From: a bacterium
Lineage (GTDB): Bacteria; Patescibacteriota; Minisyncoccia; Phycocordibacterales; UBA5272
Direction: 5' to 3'
DNA: 64,000 nucleotides
Assembly: GCA_023267595.1 (NCBI GenBank)
Contig: JAHFNB010000004.1
Span: 182 to 64,181 of the forward strand
Part shown: positions 1 to 29,575 of the stretch, piece after piece
Layout of the letters: every line of letters starts with the position of its first letter
Position numbering within the stretch: position 1 is the stretch's first letter
Program-made: the position numbers and the translations under genes
Notes under the pieces: model-generated
Seen by the model: only the letters and a program-made list of their open reading frames with translations
Told to the model about the DNA's origin: nothing
The model's database searches: none

Positions 1-46
1 CACATTGACGTTGTGAATGTCAGAGGTTCGAATCCTCTATCGCCCA
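1..46 (+). tRNA. partial tRNA, 3' portion only (window begins inside the gene); isotype not determinable
   Basis: T-arm agagg/ttcgaat/cctct (about 22-38), acceptor 3' strand atcgccc (39-45), discriminator A46; possible long variable-arm hairpin acatt...aatgt (2-20). The 5' half lies outside the window. Confidence 0.5.
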
Positions 47-343
47 CAAGAAATAAACGAAGTGATTTTTTTATGGGCGATAAGTACGACACCTGCGTGT
101 CGTATGTGAGGATTCGAATAGGGGTCGAAGAGTCTACTGTTTTGAGTAATCACAAAACGAGACGAGGTGACCGAACATCCTCTATCGCCCACAAGAAATA
201 AACGAAGTGATTTTTTTATGGGCGATAAGTACGACACCTGCGTGTCGTATGTGAGGATTCGAATAGGGGTCGAAGAGTCTACTGTTTTGAGTAATCACAA
301 AACGAGACGAGGTGACCGAACATCCTCTATCGCCCACAAGAAA
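34..343 (+). repeat. tandem direct repeat, about 2.1 copies of a 145-bp unit (34-178, 179-323, partial 324-343); each unit starts with the tRNA 3'-end core cctctatcgcccacaagaaa
   Basis: Read directly: the core recurs at 34, 179 and 324 (period 145) and the two full units are identical. The first copy overlaps the genuine T-arm/acceptor; later copies lack the T-stem partner. Confidence 0.85.
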
Positions 344-360
344 TCTGCTTTAGCAGATTT
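341..360. terminator. perfect hairpin aaatctgc-ttta-gcagattt closing the repeat array
   Basis: 8-bp perfect inverted repeat with a 4-nt loop, seen in sequence; it lies just upstream of the next promoter. Confidence 0.35.
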
Positions 361-399
361 GTGACCAAATCTCCCTGTTGGGTCATCAATATAATATTT

Positions 400-428
400 T
401 TGTAAGGACACGGTTTTGGTGGTATAAT
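400..428 (+). promoter_or_regulatory. sigma70-type promoter TTGTAA-N17-TATAAT driving the epimerase gene; the ATG is about 9 nt after the -10, so the transcript is essentially leaderless
   Basis: ttgtaa at 400-405, tataat at 423-428, ATG at 438. Confidence 0.6.
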
Positions 429-437
429 TGCCCTCAT

Positions 438-1361
438 ATGTCTCTGCAAGAACGCGTACTTATTACAGGTGCTGGAGGAATGCTAGGGAAGGCTGTTTAC
501 GAGAAAGCCATTGAAAAATACGGTAAAGATTTCGTTACGGCTACTGATATTGATCTTAATGAAGAGTGGCTCTCTATGCTCGATGTGCGTGATATTAAGG
601 CGTATGAGAATGCATTTGAAACATGGAAGCCAACTATCGTATTTCATCTTGCAGCACATACTGATCTTGAATACTGTGAGAAGAATTCAACTGATGCATG
701 GGCAACAAATGCTCTTGGTGCAGAAAATGCAGCAATACTTGCTCGTAAACATGATGCACTTTTGATTTATATAAGTACCGCGGGGATCTTTGATGGAAAG
801 AAGGATGAGTATGCAGATTTCGATACTCCTTCTCCACTTGGATATTATGCAAAGTCAAAGTTTCATGGGGAAAAGTTTGTGGAACAACATCTAAGTAGAT
901 ATTATATTTTCCGTGCGGGATGGATGATGGGAGGAGGAGTACAGAAAGATAAAAAGTTTATTAACAAGATTTATAAGCAGATAAAAGCAGGCGCACAAGA
1001 ATTATTTGTCGTTGAAGATAAGTTAGGGACACCAACATACACTGTTGATTTTGCAGGAGCAATGATGAAAGTAATTGATAGTGGATACTATGGATTGTAT
1101 AATCAAGTATGTGAAGGGGGTGGAAGTCGTTATGATGTTGCAGTAGAATTCGTACAACAACTAGGTCTTACTGACTCTGTTAAAGTGACAAAAGTAACGT
1201 CGGACTACTTCAAAGAAGAATATTTTGCAGAACGACCTGCATCTGAAAAATTATTGAATGTAAAACTTTCAATGCGAGGCATCAACTATATGCGAGATTG
1301 GCGTGTGTGTTTAGCAGAGTACGCCGTAGAGTTTAAGAATGATTTTTATGGAACATTATGA
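438..1361 (+). CDS. NAD(P)-dependent epimerase/dehydratase (extended SDR family; dTDP-sugar reductase / UDP-sugar epimerase-like)
   Basis: Rossmann motif VLITGAGGMLGKAV and catalytic YxxxK (YAKSK). An internal ATG at 438 was chosen over the ORF-track start at 378 because 378-437 contains the promoter. Confidence 0.75.
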   Translation: MSLQERVLITGAGGMLGKAVYEKAIEKYGKDFVTATDIDLNEEWLSMLDVRDIKAYENAFETWKPTIVFHLAAHTDLEYCEKNSTDAWATNALGAENAAILARKHDALLIYISTAGIFDGKKDEYADFDTPSPLGYYAKSKFHGEKFVEQHLSRYYIFRAGWMMGGGVQKDKKFINKIYKQIKAGAQELFVVEDKLGTPTYTVDFAGAMMKVIDSGYYGLYNQVCEGGGSRYDVAVEFVQQLGLTDSVKVTKVTSDYFKEEYFAERPASEKLLNVKLSMRGINYMRDWRVCLAEYAVEFKNDFYGTL

Positions 1362-3881: not shown

Positions 3882-4286
3882 TTAGTGAAAGATAAATTTT
3901 TTACGAACCCAAAAGTTGTAGATGAGTATAATACAGGTCGATATCATTTTTGAAAAAAGATAGTATACGGCAAGTTTTTCTGTAAAAAACCAGATGAGAG
4001 ATTGGTTAAGTGCGAGGCCTGTGAGACTCACAAAAACTATGAGCCAGTATTCTTTGTGAATATTTGCAATTTTTGACCCTGTAAAGACGAAATATTTTGC
4101 AAGAATGTAATTGATATTTAGCCCAATAATAAATGCAATTGCTGCAGAAGTTAAGTAGTGAATATGTGCATATTCTGTAAGAGTAAAAAGTGTACCGAAA
4201 TCAAATAAAAAAGCCGTACCACCAACGAGGAGATATTTGAAAAACTGTAGTGCTAGTTTCTCATGCTTTTTAAGCAGGGTTATCAT
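3882..4286 (-). CDS. GtrA-family small membrane protein (polysaccharide synthesis/translocation accessory)
   Basis: About 130 aa, four TM helices, N-terminal motif FFKYLLVGGTAFLFDFG typical of the GtrA family. Confidence 0.65.
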   Translation of the reverse strand: MITLLKKHEKLALQFFKYLLVGGTAFLFDFGTLFTLTEYAHIHYLTSAAIAFIIGLNINYILAKYFVFTGSKIANIHKEYWLIVFVSLTGLALNQSLIWFFTEKLAVYYLFSKMISTCIILIYNFWVRKKFIFH

Positions 4287-4305
4287 TAAGGGTCAGTATA
4301 GCATT

Positions 4306-5820
4306 TTACACTCCACGCAAAACGGTTATTTTCGCTCCAATCGCGTTTAATCTCTCGGCAATATCTGCATACCCACGTTTTATAGAATAGACGTTTCTGA
4401 GCAAGGATGTGCCTGATGCTCCAAGCATTGCAATCAGAATAATTGCCGTAGGACGAAGTGCAGGAGGGGATACAATTTGTGCACCGCGCAGTTTGGTCAC
4501 TCCTGTAACTAGTGCTCGGTGTGGGTCGAGTAATTTTATATCTGCACCGAGTCTGTTTAATTCCGTAAAATAAATAGCACGATTCTCCCATGTCCAATCA
4601 TGAATAAGTGTTTGACCAGAGGCTATGCAACTAATGGGGACAAAGAAAGGGAGATTATCATTATTAATACCGGGAAAAGGTTGTGCATGTATCTTATCTG
4701 TCGGAGCAATGATTTTTGAAGGAAATATAGTGATATCGACAAGTGAAGTTCTGCCATTTTTTGCAAAATATAATTTTGAAAGGGTAAAACGTAATCCCAT
4801 ACGTTTTAATTTTTCTAATTCGAGTGTAAGAAATGTAATTGGTGCACGTGTTATGGTGAGTTTGGATTTTGTCACGATTCCTGCGGCAATGAAGAACATA
4901 CTCTCTATTGGATCTTCACTATTGTAGTGTTCGATATTTACATCGATATCCTTTTTCCCATGTACTATAAGTGTTGTGGTACCAATACCTTCTATTACTA
5001 TACCAAAACTCTCTAGGAGGAAACATACATCTTGTACTTGATAATTTGGTGGTGCAAACATAATAGTTGTTTTCCCTTCAATACGTGATGCGGCCAGAAT
5101 TGCAGTAATCGCACCAGTGTCAGATGATTCGTAGAGTGGAATAGTCCCCGTATGTAGTTTTCTATATGAAATATCGTAGTGGTTTTCTTTTGTCTCGACA
5201 TTAATACCAAGGTATTCTAGAGCATATTTATGTGATGCAACCGTGCGTTCACCCATTTTACATCCACCAGAATGTGGAAGTGTAAAATGATTACCATAAT
5301 GAACAAATGCACCCGCAAAGGTAAATGATCTAATTTGTGTTGCAACGGCTTTGTCTATTTTTGAAAAAGAAAGTTTCTTAGGGGGTGTGATTTCAAGAGC
5401 AGTGTCATCATATATCCACTTTATCTTTACACCGACACTTTCGAGCAATTCTTTGTAGCGATGTACTTCTTCTATGTGGGGGATATCACGTAAAATAGTC
5501 GTGCCATTATTGACGAGTGCAGCAACCATCATATTGATGGCACCATTTTTTGAGGTATTTGTCTTTATACTACCTGAAAGTTTATGACCACCCTCTACTT
5601 TGAAATCAATAGCATTGTGAATACTCACTATGTTGTGTTTAAGGACGTCGCTCATCTTCATGAGTTGGTCTATAGTTACATTTTGATTTCCTGATTCTAT
5701 GCGCGCAACTGCAGACTGGGATGTTTTGAGAGACTTTGCAAATTCTCCTTGCGTCATTCCACGCTCTTCACGTAGTTTTTTTATGAAAAGTCCTATTTTT
5801 TCTTGATCATTAGGAGGCAT
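4306..5820 (-). CDS. murA: UDP-N-acetylglucosamine 1-carboxyvinyltransferase (MurA) fused in frame to an N-terminal XRE-family helix-turn-helix domain
   Basis: Residues 10-55 (IGLFIKKLREERGMTQGEFAKSLKTSQSAVARIESG) form an HTH_3 domain. The remainder aligns to MurA, including the catalytic loop GGCKMGERTV (E. coli GGCTIGARPVD) and the C-terminal RGYADIAERLNAIGAKI. Confidence 0.8.
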   Translation of the reverse strand: MPPNDQEKIGLFIKKLREERGMTQGEFAKSLKTSQSAVARIESGNQNVTIDQLMKMSDVLKHNIVSIHNAIDFKVEGGHKLSGSIKTNTSKNGAINMMVAALVNNGTTILRDIPHIEEVHRYKELLESVGVKIKWIYDDTALEITPPKKLSFSKIDKAVATQIRSFTFAGAFVHYGNHFTLPHSGGCKMGERTVASHKYALEYLGINVETKENHYDISYRKLHTGTIPLYESSDTGAITAILAASRIEGKTTIMFAPPNYQVQDVCFLLESFGIVIEGIGTTTLIVHGKKDIDVNIEHYNSEDPIESMFFIAAGIVTKSKLTITRAPITFLTLELEKLKRMGLRFTLSKLYFAKNGRTSLVDITIFPSKIIAPTDKIHAQPFPGINNDNLPFFVPISCIASGQTLIHDWTWENRAIYFTELNRLGADIKLLDPHRALVTGVTKLRGAQIVSPPALRPTAIILIAMLGASGTSLLRNVYSIKRGYADIAERLNAIGAKITVLRGV

Positions 5821-5828
5821 GAAAAAAG

Positions 5829-5846
5829 TATATCATATGTGATATA
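5829..5846. promoter_or_regulatory. 7-4-7 perfect palindrome tatatca-tatg-tgatata, 9 nt upstream of the HTH-murA start codon; operator candidate
   Basis: Seen in sequence, immediately 5' of a gene that itself encodes an XRE HTH domain. Confidence 0.5.
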
Positions 5847-5913
5847 TCATAAAATATGTGAATATAAGAGAAAACTCGGACACAGGGTCCAAGTTTTTAT
5901 AAAGAGGGAAAGT

Positions 5914-6540
5914 TTATACGGGAATCGCAGTTTTTTGTTTGAAGAGTGAAATATCAAGATTCCAGAGTTTGGCAGGGTTAAAGTAAGGATTAGGTATATC
6001 CAAAACTGATTTTTTCACAGATTTTAACCTTTCAAACTCTATATAACCCTCGACATCCGCAGAGTAGTAATCGCGGTATGCACTATATCCTTCGAGGTGA
6101 ATGGCAAATGTGCCATCTGTGTTGAGTACCATCTTGAGTGAGTGCGTTGCTTGGTTACTCATTTTATGCAGAGTAAGGAGAAGATTTCCCTTCTCACACG
6201 AGACGCCAAACTTCTGCTCATCGTAGTGGTATTCATTGATATCATGAGAACACATGTGCATTACGAGAAATGAAACAAGATATGCCATGCCATTCAGAGT
6301 TCCAAACTCGATATCTTCTGTTGGGAACAAGTAACGCACTGTATCCCCAATTAAGCGATCACAACACGTTTGCGCGAATATCGATGGGTCAAATCCGACT
6401 TTTAGACCTTCCCTTGTCGAGTTTTCAGAAAAGCCATCATTTTTTCCATTGAAGAAATTTCTAGCACCTTCGACAAACAACGGGAAAGAAAAATGTTGTA
6501 TTGTTCGCATTTTTACCAACTCATACCTTAGGTTTTTCAA
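5914..6540 (-). CDS. hypothetical protein (soluble, about 200 aa)
   Basis: ORF with no motif I can assign confidently. It lies between murA and mntH. Confidence 0.4.
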   Translation of the reverse strand: MKNLRYELVKMRTIQHFSFPLFVEGARNFFNGKNDGFSENSTREGLKVGFDPSIFAQTCCDRLIGDTVRYLFPTEDIEFGTLNGMAYLVSFLVMHMCSHDINEYHYDEQKFGVSCEKGNLLLTLHKMSNQATHSLKMVLNTDGTFAIHLEGYSAYRDYYSADVEGYIEFERLKSVKKSVLDIPNPYFNPAKLWNLDISLFKQKTAIPV

Positions 6541-18687: not shown

Positions 18688-21162
18688 ATGGCAAAAAAGA
18701 CCATTCCTGAAGAAGAATCCGCAGCGCCAAAACCTATTCATACTGGACTTCGCAATGTACATATTGCAGAAGAAATGCGTACTGCATATCTTGATTATGC
18801 GATGAGTGTTATTACATCCCGCGCATTACCGGACGCACGTGATGGCCTTAAACCTGTGCATCGTCGTATCTTGTATGCGATGAATAGTATGGGACTCACT
18901 CCTGGGGCAAAGTTTCGCAAGTCTGCAACCATTGTTGGAGAAGTGCTCGGTAACTATCATCCACACGGAGATGCATCAGTGTATGATGCTATGGTAAAAA
19001 GTGCACAAGATTTCTCATATCGTTATCCGCTCGTACTTGGACAAGGAAACTTTGGTTCTATTGATGGTGATGGAGCAGCCGCGTATCGTTATACAGAAGC
19101 AAAGATGTCAAAGATCTCGATGGAACTCATGCGAGATATTGAAAAAGAAACAGTACGTATGGTACCAAACTATGATGGTACCAAAAAAGAACCCCACGTT
19201 TTACCAACTGCAGTACCAAATCTTCTTTTGAATGGAACACTTGGTATTGCGGTCGGAATGGCGACAAATATTCCCCCACATAATCTCCGTGAAGTGATAG
19301 ATGCAACAACGCATCTCATCGATAATCCTCATGCAACAACAGAAGAACTCTGTGAATATGTACAAGGTCCTGATTTTCCATTAGGTGGTGTTGCGTTTGG
19401 TCAGTCAGATATACGTGCAGCATATGCAACAGGGCGTGGTGGCGTAGTTGTGCGTGGTGAAGCAGAAATTACGGAAACAAAAAATGGAATGTTCCAGATT
19501 ATTATTACATCACTTCCATTTCGTGTTGTTAAAAGTAATTTAATCGAAAATATTGCAGACCTCGTACGTGAAAAGAAAATCGACGGTATTAAAGGGCTTC
19601 GTGATGAGTCTACAAAAGATATTCGTGTAGTGATTGATTTAAAGAGTGGTGCACAACCACAAAAGGTGCTCAACTATTTATATAAACATACTGAACTTGA
19701 AAGTACATTTCATTACAACTTAGTGGCACTCGTTGATGGAATACCACAGACACTTGCACTTAAAGGCGCACTCGAGGCATTCGTTGGGCATAGAAAAGAA
19801 GTAGTTAGACTTCGTACAGAATATGACTTGAAACGTGCGCTAGATAAAGAGCATATCTTACTTGGTCTTAAGAAAGCACTTGATCATATTGATGAAATTA
19901 TTCAGACGATTAAAAAATCTGCAAGTACAGTAGATGCGCATGCTGCCCTTGTGAAAAAGTTTTCGTTTTCAGATATTCAAGCAACGGCTATTTTGGAAAT
20001 GAAGTTGCAACGTCTCGCAGGACTAGAACGAAAGAAAATAGAAGATGAATTAAAAGCAGTTCAAGCACTTATAGCAGAATTAAAAACTATCCTCGCATCA
20101 GAAAAGAAAATGCTTTCTATTATCAAAGCAGAATTGGTTGATATCAAAGAAAAATACGGTGATGATCGTCGTACAAAGATCGTAAAACATAAAGCAAAAG
20201 AGTTTAATCCAGAAGATTTGATTGCAGATCGTGAAGAGGTACTTGTCTACACGTCAGGTGGTTATGTGAAGCGTACTGACCCTGCAGAATTTCGTACACA
20301 AAAGCGTGGTGGCGTAGGAGTGGTTGATTTAAATACCAAAGAAGAAGATTTCGTAACGATGTCACTCTCTACATCGACACACAGTGATTTACTCTTCTTT
20401 ACCGATAAAGGAAAAGCATATCAGATAAAAATGTATGACATGCCAGAAGGAAAACGTGCGACACGTGGCAAGAGCATTATGAATTTCCTTCAACTAACTG
20501 ATGGAGAGAAAGTCACATCTATCTTACCGATGCCAAAGGATGTAAAAGAAATGAAAGGAATATCACTGATGATGATTACCAAAAATGGTACGGTAAAGAA
20601 ATCTGCTGCAGATTCATTTAAAGAAGTACGTCGTAGTGGACTCATCTCTATTCGTCTTGAAGACAAAGATGAATTACTCGCAGCACTTTTTGTAACAGGA
20701 GGGGATAATGTGATCCTGACAACGCACAATGGTCAATCTATTCGTTTTGATCATAAAGATGTACGAGAAATGGGACGCACCGCAGCCGGAGTGATTGGTA
20801 TGAAATTAGACAAAGGAGATGCGATAGTTGCAGCAGATAAAATCCCAGAAGGTACAAAGGGCGCAGAATTACTCGTTGTTACTGCAAATGGGTATGGAAA
20901 GAAAACGAAATTATCTGAATACAAAACACAACACCGTGGTGGTAGTGGTATTAAAACGGTAAAAGTTACTGATAAAACTGGAAAGTTAATTGTCGCACGT
21001 GTGGTAACTGCTGAAAATGAAGAGTTACTTGCTGTTTCAAAAGAATCACAAGTGATTAGAACAGAATTATCTTCGATTCCAACTTTAGGTCGTGATACAC
21101 AGGGGGTGCGTGTTATGAAATTGCGAGAAAAAGATTCTGTCGCAAGTTTCAACTTGTTATAA
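18688..21162 (+). CDS. gyrA: DNA gyrase subunit A
   Basis: [23 protein letters not shown] with active-site Tyr, QRDR-equivalent [13 protein letters not shown], and a C-terminal beta-pinwheel repeat region. No adjacent gyrB. Confidence 0.95.
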
Positions 21163-27222: not shown

Positions 27223-27255
27223 AAAAAATTGCTATTCAAAATAGCAATTTTTTGT
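27223..27255 (+). terminator. intrinsic terminator aattgctatt-caa-aatagcaatt plus T6
   Basis: 10-bp perfect stem followed by tttttt. Confidence 0.7.
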
Positions 27256-27348
27256 TAGTATTTACGTATCGGGGATTCTACTGTAGTGAGGAGTGTTGAA
27301 GTGCGTCCATCGCAATGACTCATCAGTAGTTCATCCCTGACCCATCTT

Positions 27349-27419
27349 GGGCCTATAGTTTAGTGGTAGAACAACGGCCTCCAAATCCGTTGGTCGAGGT
27401 TCGATTCCTCGTGGGCCCG
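27349..27419 (+). tRNA. tRNA-Trp (anticodon CCA)
   Basis: Acceptor GGGCCTA/TGGGCCC (one G-U pair), D-arm GTTT-AGTGGTA-GAAC, anticodon loop CTCCAAA, T-arm CGAGG-TTCGATT-CCTCG, discriminator G. One C-U mismatch at the base of the anticodon stem. Confidence 0.85.
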
Positions 27420-27421
27420 CA

Positions 27422-27462
27422 CAATTCAAAACACACAGATTCTTTCTGTGTGTTTTGAATTG
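27422..27462 (+). terminator. 17-bp perfect hairpin caattcaaaacacacag-attcttt-ctgtgtgttttgaattg immediately 3' of tRNA-Trp
   Basis: Perfect inverted repeat read directly. Confidence 0.6.
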
Positions 27463-27473
27463 CTTAGGTTTTA

Positions 27474-27492
27474 CACGAGGAATCGAACGAGG
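27474..27492 (-). repeat. inverted partial copy of the tRNA-Trp T-arm/3' end (ttcgattcctcgtg, 14 of 14)
   Basis: The reverse complement of 27474-27492 is cctcgttcgattcctcgtg. Confidence 0.6.
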
Positions 27493-27590
27493 AAAGGGGT
27501 CGGGAAAACGTGTTTAGTTTTCCCGTGGCGGAAGAATGGAAACCGAGGGGTTTCCAAACCGTAATGAGTGATAACGAATGGAGGTTGTTC

Positions 27591-27607
27591 ATTCCTCGTG
27601 GGCCCGC
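27591..27607 (+). repeat. direct 17-bp copy of the tRNA-Trp 3' end attcctcgtgggcccgc (att-site-like scar)
   Basis: Identical to 27404-27420, located 187 bp downstream. Confidence 0.7.
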
Positions 27608-27653
27608 TTCTTTTCCACTACTGACTGATAACTGTTCACTGTATACTACATAT

Positions 27654-28730
27654 ATGGATAAGAAACTCCGTGTAGCAATCAATGGATTTGGGCGCATTGG
27701 TCGTGCGTTTTTTAAAGTAGCGCTTGCACATCCAGACATTGAGATTGTCGCAGTGAATGACTTGGGAGACGTACATAATCTCGCATATCTTCTTCAGTAC
27801 GATACTGTATATCGCGTGTCTTCATTTGATGTGCACGCAGAGATACATGAGGAAAGTAAAGAGCAATATCTTGTTATCGAAGGTGATATAGATATGAAAG
27901 TAAAAGTGGTACAGGAAAAAGACCCTAACTTGCTTCCGTGGAAGAGTATGGAAATTGATGTCGTAGTAGAATCAACAGGACTTTTTACAACATATGATAA
28001 AGCACAGGCTCATATCACTGCAGGAGCAAAACATGTGGTAATCTCAGCGCCTGCAAAAGACGGAGTAGATACAACAGTACTTGGAGAGACCATTTTAATG
28101 GGGGTAAATGAAGAAAAGTTTGGTACATGTACTATAACATCAAATGCATCATGTACCACGAATGCCTCATCCCCACTTATTGCAATACTTGATGAGACAT
28201 TAGGTATTGAAAAAGCAATTTTAAATACAGTACACGCGTATACCGCATCTCAAAGTATTGTAGACGGACCAAATAAAAAAGATTTTCGTGAAGGTAGGGC
28301 TGCTGCACAAAATATTGTCCCATCATCAACTGGTGCAGCAATCGCAGTGACAAAAGCATTTACAAAACTAACGGGACTATTTGATGGAATATCTATGCGC
28401 GTACCAGTTCCTGCAGGTTCAATCGTGGATGTTACCTTTATTTCAAAAAAAGAAACGACTGTGGAAGAAGTAAATAAGATTCTCACAGAAGCCTCACGTA
28501 TAAATAGATGGAAAGATATTTTTACAGTTACAGAAGAAGAATTAGTATCTAGTGATATCTTAGGACTTCCGTTTGCATCTATTGCAGATCTCAAAATGAC
28601 GCGTGTAGTAGGGGGAAATTTGGTGAAAGTACTGGCGTGGTATGATAATGAAATGGGGTATACTCACACACTAGTCGCACACGTTTTAAAAGCAGGAAAG
28701 ACAATACAGACAGTAGACAGTAGACTGTAG
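27654..28730 (+). CDS. gap: glyceraldehyde-3-phosphate dehydrogenase
   Basis: NGFGRIGR NAD motif and active-site SNASCTTN. Internal ATG chosen; the ORF-track start at 27510 reads through tRNA-derived repeats. Confidence 0.9.
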   Translation: MDKKLRVAINGFGRIGRAFFKVALAHPDIEIVAVNDLGDVHNLAYLLQYDTVYRVSSFDVHAEIHEESKEQYLVIEGDIDMKVKVVQEKDPNLLPWKSMEIDVVVESTGLFTTYDKAQAHITAGAKHVVISAPAKDGVDTTVLGETILMGVNEEKFGTCTITSNASCTTNASSPLIAILDETLGIEKAILNTVHAYTASQSIVDGPNKKDFREGRAAAQNIVPSSTGAAIAVTKAFTKLTGLFDGISMRVPVPAGSIVDVTFISKKETTVEEVNKILTEASRINRWKDIFTVTEEELVSSDILGLPFASIADLKMTRVVGGNLVKVLAWYDNEMGYTHTLVAHVLKAGKTIQTVDSRL

Positions 28731-28750: not shown

Positions 28751-29107
28751 ATGTCCTCATACAAAGATTTAATTGTTTGGCAAAAATCTTATAAACTTTC
28801 GCTTTTGATTTATTCAATTACCAAAAAATTTCCTAAAGAAGAAATGTTTGGATTAGTTTCTCAAATGCGCCGAGCAAGTGTATCTATTCCAAGTAATATA
28901 GCAGAAGGTAATAATAGGTTTGGTAAAAAAGACAATGCACAATTTCTTAGAATTGCTTATGGCTCTGCATCTGAACTTGAAACACAGTTATCAATTTCTA
29001 AAGATTTGAAGTTTACTTCAGATAAGGAGTATACTGAAGCATCAGGATTACTTTCTGAAATCATGAAAATGCTCTACACATTATTAGTTCGGGTCTCTAA
29101 TGTCTAA
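28751..29107 (+). CDS. four-helix-bundle protein (TIGR02436 / 23S rRNA intervening-sequence protein family)
   Basis: DLIVWQKSYKL...FPKEEMFGLVSQMRRASVSIPSNIAEGNNR matches the family signature. Confidence 0.75.
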   Translation: MSSYKDLIVWQKSYKLSLLIYSITKKFPKEEMFGLVSQMRRASVSIPSNIAEGNNRFGKKDNAQFLRIAYGSASELETQLSISKDLKFTSDKEYTEASGLLSEIMKMLYTLLVRVSNV

Positions 29108-29113
29108 TGTCTT

Positions 29114-29575
29114 ATGTCTAAAGTCTATTTGGCTACTGATCACGCAGGATTTGAGTATAAGGAAGAAATAAAAAGTTACCTAGAAGAACACAACCATGAA
29201 GTTTATGATTGTGGAGCGCTTACCCTTGAGACAGGAGATGATTATCCAGAAATTATTGCGCGTGCTGCAGAAAAAGTACAAGATGATGCCAAGCATGATC
29301 CATCTATGGCAGTAATCTTCGGAGGGTCAGGAGTAGGAGAAGCAATTGTTGCTAATCGATTTCCACATGTACGAGCAGTTACCTTTTCTGGTGGTCCTCT
29401 TGATGTTATAAAAAAATCACGTGAAGATAATGATACGAATGTAATTTCAATTGGAGTGAGATTTGTGACAATTAATGAAGCAAAACAAGCAATTGATTTA
29501 TTTTTGGCGACACCTTTTTCACATCTTGAGCGTCATGCAGATAGAATTATTCAGATAGAAGAAGTTACACAATAA
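29114..29575 (+). CDS. rpiB: ribose-5-phosphate isomerase B (RpiB/LacA/LacB family)
   Basis: LATDHAGFEYK N-terminus, DCG, GGSGVGEAIVANR and the C-terminal ATPFS motif. Confidence 0.8.
   Translation: MSKVYLATDHAGFEYKEEIKSYLEEHNHEVYDCGALTLETGDDYPEIIARAAEKVQDDAKHDPSMAVIFGGSGVGEAIVANRFPHVRAVTFSGGPLDVIKKSREDNDTNVISIGVRFVTINEAKQAIDLFLATPFSHLERHADRIIQIEEVTQ

Follow-up and report, generated by a model that had tools for sequence, protein, structure and literature searches.

A tRNA-Val gene and a 145-nt repeat array

The DNA analysed here (the window) is a stretch of 64,000 nucleotides from contig JAHFNB010000004.1 (GenBank assembly GCA_023267595.1) of a member of the Patescibacteria, or candidate phyla radiation (CPR), and opens inside a tRNA-Val gene followed by an array of 145-nt direct repeats. 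The 145-bp repeat is, apparently, a recent tandem duplication of one member of a family of structured elements located 3′ of Patescibacteria tRNAs, and the family itself seems to be undescribed. The Rfam tRNA model matched positions 1–46 of the window (model positions 27–71; 29.3 bits; 5′-truncated), comprising the anticodon arm, the variable loop, the T-arm (AGAGG-TTCGAAT-CCTCT, 22–38), the acceptor 3′ strand (ATCGCCC, 39–45), and the discriminator A46, with the CCA not encoded. Another assembly of the same locus (L001), retrieved by a protein look-up with the adjoining RmlD-like gene, contains the complete tRNA-Val(GAC) gene, with a diverging tRNA-Glu(UUC) upstream. The original prediction, made from the letters of the window, had also placed its beginning inside a tRNA and had made that reading hang on an intact tRNA 5′ half upstream; L001 supplies the 5′ half as well as the isotype.

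Tandem Repeats Finder (TRF) reported the array at 32–344 with a period of 145 nt, 2.2 copies, 100% matches, and zero indels, and a repeat search resolved two 145-nt copies at 32–176 and 177–321. The 23-nt tRNA tail ATCCTCTATCGCCCACAAGAAAT marks the unit borders, at 32, 177, and 322; it starts at the end of the T-loop and continues through the T-stem 3′ strand, acceptor 3′ strand, and discriminator to the eighth nucleotide of the trailer. The sequence at the unit-to-unit junction is GACCGAACATCCTCTATCGCCCACAAGAAATAAACG. After the third 23-nt copy the repeat is abandoned, with CTGC... in place of AAAC.... Two identical units with a truncated third, headed by the reused tRNA 3′ end, had thus been recognized correctly in the original prediction (its starts at 34, 179, and 324 fall inside the 23-nt copies), as had the palindrome that closes the array and a GGGCGAT motif in each unit (75–81 and 220–226). 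Both hairpins that it proposed are real, but the first is better given as TACGACAC-CTGC-GTGTCGTA (85–104; 8 bp and a 4-nt loop), and the second is (T)GTTTTG-AGTAATCA-CAAAAC(G). The complement of the acceptor strand had been noticed, whereas the complement of the T-loop and T-stem, GAGGATTCGAA, and a sister element after tRNA-Trp had been missed. TRF also reported low-scoring short tandem repeats elsewhere in the window (5835–5874, 20121–20163, and 29096–29127, with periods of 20, 21, and 7 nt, respectively).

The promoter scan showed no promoter-like site within the units. The closing palindrome is probably the terminator of a transcript containing the tRNA and the elements, although a simple terminator scan did not call it, because its T-run sits within the stem. 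The positions of all features are collected in Table 1.

Table 1. Positions of the tRNA genes, repeat units, parts of the element, and neighbouring features in the window
Feature	Position	Strand	Basis or remark
3′ part of tRNA-Val(GAC)	1–46	+	Rfam tRNA match, 5′-truncated; full gene in L001, 9682–9755
X copy 1, 23-nt direct repeat ATCCTCTATCGCCCACAAGAAAT	32–54	+	repeat search
Spacer between tRNA and element 1	47–74	+	A-rich and T-rich halves; weak hairpin extending the X/X′ dyad
Element copy 1, ~117 nt	75–191	+	folds, covariation, RNAalifold, homologues
X′, acceptor part GGGCGATA	75–82	+	element copy 1
P2 hairpin AG-TACGACAC-CTGC-GTGTCGTA-TGT	83–107	+	element copy 1
X′, T part GAGGATTCGAA	108–118	+	inverted-repeat search
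P4 base, GGTCG pairing with TGACC	123–127, 168–172	+	element copy 1
GTCT pairing with AGAC	132–135, 160–163	+	element copy 1
Apical hairpin TGTTTTG-AGTAATCA-CAAAACG	138–159	+	element copy 1
3′ X, ATCCTC-T-ATCGCCC-A = ATCCTCTATCGCCCA	177–191	+	direct copy of tRNA tail
Spacer between elements 1 and 2, identical to 47–74	192–219	+	repeat searches
Element copy 2, identical to copy 1; CTGC loop at 238–241	220–336	+	TRF (100% identity), repeat search, CTGC hairpin census
X copy 3 (third 23-nt repeat), end of element 2	322–344	+	repeat search
Perfect palindrome AAATCTGC-TTTA-GCAGATTT	341–360	+	sequence reading
Promoter-like site TTGTAA, 17 nt, TATAAT, with upstream TG	400–428	+	belongs to next gene, outside the element
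RmlD-like short-chain dehydrogenase/reductase (SDR) epimerase/reductase gene	438–1361		gene after the array
tRNA-Trp(CCA), second tRNA of the window	27349–27420	+	tRNA search
Sister element after tRNA-Trp	27421–27607	+	X′ to X span, 27474–27607

Architecture, relatives, and strand of the element

Read on the tRNA strand, the elements of the family share a common layout. The 5′ part, X′, is the reverse complement of the last ~20 nt of the neighbouring tRNA, in most cases interrupted precisely where acceptor and T-stem meet by a 9–10-bp hairpin with an invariant CUGC loop (the CUGC hairpin; P2 in Table 1), and the 3′ part, X, is a direct copy of the last 13–23 nt of the tRNA. In the window, the T part of X′ is the exact reverse complement of the tRNA-Val T-loop and T-stem 3′ strand. 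Between X′ and X, the clade to which the window belongs (six aligned elements) has a helix base GGUCG/UGACC with an invariant G·U pair, and an apical hairpin UGUUUYG...CRAAAC. As an RNA, the unit of the window folds with a z-score of −4.5 against shuffled sequences, into a predicted structure in which X′ pairs with X in a closing helix and the CUGC hairpin branches off the 5′ strand. The minimum-free-energy (MFE) folds of the elements that retain the 3′ copy are likewise closed by X′ and X, with the 3′ strand running unbroken from its T-stem part into its acceptor part, and the sequence of this helix is that of the tRNA's acceptor and T stems. Compared with the ~12-bp acceptor-plus-T-stem helix and free 3′ discriminator of a tRNA, the unit has a predicted 8-bp plus 6-bp helix followed by A191. 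At the same time, X′ and X constitute 13–17-nt terminal inverted repeats that are specific to each tRNA.

The original prediction had proposed a search of relatives, and homologous elements were found after tRNA-Val (GAC or UAC) at loci from other lineages of the CPR, which carry the labels Parcubacteria, Saccharibacteria, Lloydbacteria, and Pacebacteria/Gracilibacteria. The first scan, of species-representative genomes with the loose pattern GGGCGATAN{15,35}GAGGATTCGAA (~90 chance matches estimated), gave three true loci among the matches listed (at least 100 loci), all aligning far past the pattern: L038 (Parcubacteria label; GAC anticodon), L022 (Saccharibacteria label; GAC), and L049 (Lloydbacteria label; UAC). 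The elements of the window and L038 are 79–84% identical. A stricter scan of metagenomes gave one true match in four, L106, whose tRNA-Val has a tandem pair of mutually diverged elements behind it, with compensatory changes in the CUGC stem. Synteny of the RmlD-like gene gave no relatives beyond 84% identity. Since TsaD, a trypsin-like protease, and RlmH adjoin the tRNA-Val/tRNA-Glu pair in L022 and L108, RlmH homologues were used as the anchor, and this search led to four more genomes with the element (L123, L127, L129, and L135). Among the loci reached by synteny and not by an element pattern, tRNA-Val carries the element in five of six. The parts of the element are kept to different extents at the four anchored loci: L123 has an intact X′ (one mismatch), the CUGC hairpin, and a slightly degenerate 3′ copy; L129 has an intact X′, the CUGC hairpin, and a decayed 3′ copy; L127 has a degenerate X′, a perfect CUGC hairpin, and no 3′ copy; and L135 has a contiguous 19-nt complement as X′ and a perfect 3′ copy, with the CUGC hairpin absent.

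The gene neighbourhood at these loci is partly shared. TsaD and RlmH adjoin the tRNA-Val, usually paired with tRNA-Glu, in L022 (1447–4584), L108 (5643–8382), L123, L127, L129, and L135 (loci labelled Saccharibacteria and Pacebacteria/Gracilibacteria), with the trypsin-like protease gene between TsaD and RlmH in L022, L108, and L123. In L129, a 16S rRNA gene follows directly (4129–5797).

Elements matched to other tRNAs are also present. Those matched to tRNA-Glu were found in L038 and L135, and in a degenerate form in L108. The sister element after the tRNA-Trp of the window, which the GAPDH gene follows, begins with a perfect 18-bp spacer hairpin (~27424–27462), followed by X′ CACGAGGAATCGAAC (27474–27488), whose 15 nt are the exact complement of GTTCGATTCCTCGTG at the T-loop/T-stem/acceptor junction of the tRNA; it has GGGGTCG and three internal hairpins but lacks the CUGC hairpin, and ends with X ATTCCTCGTGGGCCCGC (27591–27607), a 17-nt direct copy of the tRNA end. 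The T-loops of tRNA-Glu and tRNA-Trp are non-palindromic, and their elements carry the complement; X′ is therefore antisense to the tRNA. A script compared each tRNA 3′ end with the downstream 420–500 nt; among the first 107 fetched loci and the window, only CPR loci had a reverse-complement copy of this end within 450 nt behind the tRNA. Direct repeats of the tRNA end measured 10–18 nt at the other element loci; elsewhere, they were ordinary tandem tRNA genes.

Further observations concern the tRNA-Glu elements. In L108 (8468–8900), a relative with an RmlD-like protein of 84% identity, the tRNA-Glu/tRNA-Val pair has the opposite orientation to that in the window; its tRNA-Val has no element, and the degenerate tRNA-Glu element keeps the CUGC hairpin and a GGGGTC...GTGACC helix without the 3′ tRNA copy. 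An orphan element of the Glu type with no detectable intact tRNA upstream lies in L135 (~6040–6256) and is composed of a spacer hairpin, ATGACCCCA, a CUGC hairpin identical to that of the L129 tRNA-Val element, and GGAGAGTCGAAA ... CTCTCCGTGGGGGTTA, with an extended −10-like sequence TGGTATACT ~45 nt upstream. The 10-mer TTAGTGCTAG occurs in 4 of the 137 fetched loci (L038, 893–902, minus strand; L108, 8877–8886, L109, 35–44, and L135, 4556–4565, all plus strand), directly 3′ of the Glu-type element in L038, L108, and L135; L109 is a 1-kb contig encoding the same RmlD-like protein as L108. A related sequence, CTAGCACTAG, is found just 3′ of the tRNA-Glu in L001, where there is no element.

The structure shows several signs of selection. 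In an alignment of 13 sequences on the CUGC loop, the loop is invariant, all eight variable stem pairs have changed on both sides, and all 104 cells (104/104) are Watson–Crick pairs; only ~40% are paired in slid registers, and the covariation score was reached by none of 500 column shuffles. For the six elements of the clade of the window, RNAalifold recovered the closing stem, the GGUCG/UGACC helix base, and the apical hairpin, with one G·U and one U·G pair invariant in 6/6, in the helix base and the apical stem. A G·U pair is also found at the base of the CUGC hairpin in 2 of the 13 sequences. The folding energies add up to −638 kcal/mol for the sense and −600 kcal/mol for the antisense strand, with 23 and 11 G·U pairs, respectively. 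Apart from the one in the orphan element, CTGC-loop hairpins were confined to the 3′ side of tRNAs in the scanned loci, with none dispersed elsewhere, and their orientation was invariably that of the tRNA. A covariance model built on the conserved frame was run over 255 kb of mostly CPR sequence, 64 kb of it from this genome, and found no copies away from tRNAs except the orphan. Taken together, the covariation, the invariant G·U pairs, the sense folding, and the orientation of the hairpins speak for an RNA of tRNA sense, or at any rate a single strand of that sense, as the form under selection.

Comparison with known RNAs gave no identity for the element. ARAGORN and Rfam (RF00005) called canonical tRNAs only at 1–46 and 27349–27420 in the window, and not in the units; neither program found a transfer-messenger RNA (tmRNA) in the window, nor did the tmRNA option of ARAGORN in 15 loci. 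Against Rfam 15, only tRNA reached E ≤ 10 in window positions 1–600, and positions 27250–27700 together with L022, L038, L049, L106, L123, L127, and L129 gave, besides tRNA, weak microRNA- or leader-like palindrome matches far below the gathering scores. Translations of spurious open reading frames (ORFs) across the element returned the same locus only, and literature searches found no description of such elements. Several candidates were discarded. A tmRNA or permuted tmRNA, prompted by GGATTCGA and the tRNA-like 3′ end, has no ARAGORN or Rfam match, and the unit is too short. A real T-loop mimic is at odds with the tRNA-Glu and tRNA-Trp elements, which carry the complement of the T-loop (AGTCGAA and AATCGAA) and not the T-loop. 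In the case of a primer-binding site of the retroviral type, the complementarity ends at the discriminator without the TGG for CCA and is interrupted by a hairpin. The core motifs of hammerhead and other self-cleaving ribozymes are absent, the sole match being antisense (20.8 bits; E = 0.11), and the likeness of GAGGAAAGGGGTCGGG in the tRNA-Trp element to RNase P RNA is superficial, with none reported by Rfam. ToxI units are ~36 nt long; an RNA array of a type III toxin–antitoxin system (ToxI-like) was dismissed on account of the 145-nt unit and of the next gene, which encodes the RmlD-like SDR enzyme.

Origin of the array and DNA-level explanations

The number of units differs among the available assemblies. 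Two MEGAHIT k141 assemblies of the locus (L001 and L118) contain one unit (1.2 copies), which gives some ground to the assembly artefact that the original prediction had named as its possible undoing. According to this explanation, the element is real, and the genome has one unit, around which the assembler looped once too often at the contig start; in its favour, the two single-unit assemblies are independent, the array stands right at the beginning of the window, at what may be a contig end, and the exact 145-nt repeat exceeds the usual largest k-mer (141). However, a loop in the graph needs reads containing the unit-to-unit junction, and natural tandem arrays of the element exist, as in L106. 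Moreover, in another data set, the first nucleotide of a Logan contig (L002) lies exactly 30 nt ahead of the divergence between the unit-to-unit and unit-to-downstream sequences, and 7 nt before the matching repeat copy (window position 315). If the k-mer length of Logan is 31, the 30 nt equal k − 1, and the start of L002 is consistent with a graph branch produced by real tandem copies. We therefore regard an artefact as quite improbable, and the duplication in the window is probably real and polymorphic. With identical units bounded by 23-nt repeats, and with single-unit alleles in other samples, the array is explained most simply by a recent duplication of one element through slippage at the 23-nt X repeats or unequal exchange between them. 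The older tandem pair in L106, whose copies have diverged, shows that neither copy of such a duplication need be lost. Compared with L001, the tRNA-Val of L118 (758–831), a strain variant, has three changed positions, of which one lies in the D-loop and the others in the T-stem, where the changes are non-compensatory (a T·C mismatch and a G·T pair), with the downstream element and X copy unchanged; it could be a decaying tRNA allele or reflect low-coverage errors.

The reuse of a tRNA 3′ end had suggested in the original prediction a tandem array of scars of integrase-mediated insertion, and the exact 23-nt repeats at 32, 177, and 322 do have the direct-repeat form of attL/attR sites, with the tRNA 3′ end at each unit boundary. 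A plain array of non-functional attL/attR remnants, left by insertions and deletions at tRNA-Val, is nevertheless highly improbable. The 122 nt between the repeats are not an unstructured insert but a conserved structured element, whose architecture recurs across the CPR with full covariation of the stem and an invariant loop, and the identity of the two units in the window points to duplication of one unit and not to independent scars. Furthermore, no integrase was found among the called genes within 10 kb on either side of the locus or among 20 further large ORFs of the window, and no recombinase or integrase adjoins the elements in L123, L127, L129, and L135. The window is a piece of chromosomal core with 36.6% GC, encoding HisRS, S1, GyrA, GAPDH, a split transketolase, TGT, UvrABC, ribonucleotide reductase, RNase J, and DnaE.

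A more elaborate DNA-level explanation is a miniature integrative element, a remnant or non-autonomous, that recombines into the segment of the tRNA gene from the T-loop to the 3′ end. X would then be the identity block of an attachment (att) site, X and X′ would fold, perhaps as single-stranded DNA, into a copy of the target duplex, and the tandem units would result from repeated integration by a recombinase acting in trans. The attP of CTX phage and the attC sites of integrons fold in this manner into duplex target-like copies, and the att repeats in tRNA genes reportedly extend from the T-loop to the end of the tRNA or past it (the T-loop sublocation, as Williams is said to have described in 2002). 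The direct repeats of the element have this classic layout. Further points for the explanation are the tandem arrays in the window and L106 (two diverged units), the differing presence among close relatives with an inverted tRNA-Glu/tRNA-Val pair in L108, the dispersed orphan copy, and the purely Watson–Crick CUGC stem. On the other hand, no integrase or recombinase was found near any copy examined, save for a Y1 transposase-like gene (IS200/IS605 or REP-associated; 1579–2250) ~6 kb from the tRNA pair in L108. No match was obtained by blastn against phage genomes; scans of viral contigs with two patterns gave one unrelated match in a GC-rich contig for one pattern and none for the other. Within a genome, the elements of different tRNAs are not mutual copies, whereas those of the same tRNA are alike across genomes, consistent with descent with the tRNA rather than recent movement. 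In addition, the conserved G·U pairs of the sense strand would be A·C mismatches on the other strand, and the covariance model revealed no copies away from tRNAs apart from the orphan. On balance, such an element appears improbable.

Known mobile and repetitive DNA differs from the element in comparable respects. The repeats flanking tRNA-integrated islands (attL/attR) also begin at the T-loop, reach to or past the tRNA 3′ end, and may form tandem arrays; in contrast, the "insert" of the element measures ~120–190 nt, has no genes and no integrase, and contains a covarying structure and an extra inverted copy of the tRNA end. The integron attC and CTX-phage attP(+) sites resemble the element in that inverted target-like copies fold to mimic the chromosomal site, and integron cassettes are also found in tandem; unlike them, the element has neither an IntI/Xer-type context nor R′/R″ core motifs, and its G·U pairs point to RNA. 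Correia/NEMIS, ERIC, and REP/BIME repeats are intergenic sequences of 100–200 nt, often beside terminators, with terminal inverted repeats that form a long stem, as in the element. The ends of the latter, however, vary with the tRNA, being identical to the adjacent tRNA 3′ end, and it has no dispersed identical copies and lacks the usual target-site duplication. Dispersed hairpins of the REP type (repetitive extragenic palindromes) were rejected on the location of the CTGC-loop hairpins beside tRNAs or in the one orphan, and a miniature inverted-repeat transposable element or REP-like repeat on the absence of dispersed near-identical copies in the 255 kb surveyed.

Possible roles of the element beside its tRNA

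The interpretation that we favour, at a confidence a little short of even, is that the element is transcribed with the tRNA and released by tRNA-processing enzymes as an RNA of ~117 nt, whose core acts probably via a protein. In this model, the element would be transcribed together with the tRNA or by read-through from it; co-transcription is suggested by the absence of a promoter-like site in the units, the weak hairpin between the tRNA and unit 1, and the palindrome closing the array. X′ would pair with its own X to form a 13–14-bp helix with the sequence of the acceptor and T stem of the cognate tRNA (a "minihelix"), and the CUGC hairpin would branch off where the D and anticodon arms sit in a tRNA. 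The tRNA-like end could then be recognized by RNase P, RNase Z, and the CCA-adding enzyme, which would cut out and stabilize the ~117-nt small RNA, and the function would be carried by the conserved core (the CUGC hairpin and the G·U helix), most plausibly through binding of a protein. Conversion of the "tRNA-element" arrangement into "tRNA-element-element" by slippage or unequal exchange would have doubled the dosage of the RNA. The suggestion in the original prediction that a tRNA-derived repeat might give small tRNA-like RNAs comes close to what the evidence supports.

There are precedents for parts of this model. MALAT1-associated small cytoplasmic RNA (mascRNA), the t-elements of plant mitochondria, and the tRNA-like domain of tmRNA have helices imitating the acceptor and T-stem, and the helix of the element might likewise attract RNase P, RNase Z, and the CCA-adding enzyme, which would set the ends of a non-tRNA RNA. 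Unlike these tRNA-like RNAs, the element has a T-loop complement and no D or anticodon arm, and its helix is a literal copy of the neighbouring tRNA. Rfam and ARAGORN detected no tmRNA, YrlA, or mascRNA in the element, the mascRNA-menRNA model giving a sub-threshold match to the tRNA-Trp gene only. Functional RNAs in tRNA trailers are also represented by 3′ETS-leuZ of Escherichia coli, a small RNA derived from the 3′ external transcribed spacer (3′ETS) of a tRNA transcript, which is a short, Hfq-dependent sponge without tRNA-derived sequence. Such RNAs are released by tRNA processing, as proposed here for the element, whereas the element is longer (~117–190 nt), highly structured, and built of copies of the tRNA end. 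Comparable mimicry of a tRNA helix is seen in the bacterial YrlA Y RNAs, which bear a tRNA-like module (PMC4201824).

Several observations weigh against the release of a small RNA. A strong terminator-like hairpin with a T-run is located between the tRNA and the element in L049, L106, L123, L127, L129, L135, and after the tRNA-Trp of the window; as there is no room for a promoter behind this spacer hairpin, transcription of the element would depend on read-through. X′ always includes the complement of the T-loop, which is needless for a minihelix, and tracks the T-loop of its tRNA (TTCGAAT/ATTCGAA in some genomes and TTCGACT/AGTCGAA in others). Its complementarity is always greater to the tRNA's own 3′ end (17–20 nt) than to the 3′ copy (13–16 nt). 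The 3′ copy is missing in L129, L127, and the tRNA-Glu element of L108, and the CUGC hairpin is missing in the L135 tRNA-Val and the window tRNA-Trp elements. The CUGC stem has no G·U pair at its eight variable positions, and a palindrome maintained at the DNA level would show the same. The distribution is patchy among close relatives, with no element after the tRNA-Val in L108 or after the tRNA-Glu in the genome of the window (L001). Finally, the sample is small (~15 elements), and four of the loci were found with patterns derived from the element itself.

Some of these observations would be accounted for if the selected interaction were that of X′ with the 3′ half of its own tRNA in the primary transcript. 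Once RNA polymerase has passed the tRNA, X′ could unzip the acceptor and T arms by pairing with the 3′ half of the tRNA; together with the spacer hairpin and the CUGC hairpin, this duplex would make up a long three-way junction. The downstream X would serve as a decoy that frees the tRNA again, and the element would govern the maturation or quality of the tRNA, or the termination or processing of read-through transcripts, instead of acting as an RNA of its own. In the MFE fold of the whole transcript, the 3′ strand of the tRNA T-arm and acceptor does pair with X′, and the tRNA 5′ strand with the downstream X. The long complementarity of X′, including the T-loop, covaries with the tRNA, and one change in L129 keeps the pair as G·U on the sense strand; X′ is also kept where the 3′ copy has decayed (L129 and L127). 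Moreover, the three loci without a strong spacer hairpin (tRNA-Val of the window and of L038, and L022) all keep an intact 3′ copy, and the three elements without the 3′ copy (L127, L129, and the tRNA-Glu element of L108) all have a strong spacer hairpin. A cis-acting trailer of this kind, however, leaves unexplained the conserved G·U helix and apical hairpin as well as the tandem copies in the window and L106, is difficult to reconcile with the orphan element in L135 lacking an intact upstream tRNA, and offers no evident benefit in misfolding its own tRNA. The arms of quasi-palindromes can be corrected from arm to arm by template switching, a process that could make X′ track the tRNA without selection on RNA. 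We consider the cis-acting role unlikely, less probable than the processed small RNA described above.

The processed small RNA may also be extended to a wider proposal, which is itself unlikely: a CPR class of small RNAs matched to particular tRNAs (Val, Glu, Trp, and perhaps more), each with a cognate minihelix on a non-decoding body, a tRNA-like maturation, and either a role outside translation or the capture of the cognate tRNA 3′ half. If such a class exists, the RNAs would be recognized, and possibly aminoacylated, by the partner proteins of the cognate tRNA for a role outside translation; alternatively, the antisense segment would sense or capture the 3′ half of the cognate tRNA, e.g., after attack by a nuclease. 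The tandem duplication in the window would then represent an amplification of dosage.

The active form may be a free RNA or, less probably, a cis-acting trailer or DNA. The element is unlikely to be junk, because its structure is conserved, both sense and antisense copies of the tRNA end are kept, and it recurs behind tRNA-Val and at least two other tRNAs. For practical work on these genomes, the exact repeats of tRNA ends introduced by the elements break assemblies and can be mistaken in annotation for integration scars or tRNA fragments. A considerable part of bacterial diversity belongs to the CPR/Patescibacteria, whose tiny genomes hold little spare DNA and whose RNAs have hardly been studied. 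If the element acts as a switch in cis or as a miniature recombination site, it would represent a new mode of tRNA gene regulation or targeting; if it is a small RNA processed like a tRNA, it would constitute a new bacterial class of tRNA mimics and provide a handle on tRNA biology in organisms not yet grown alone.

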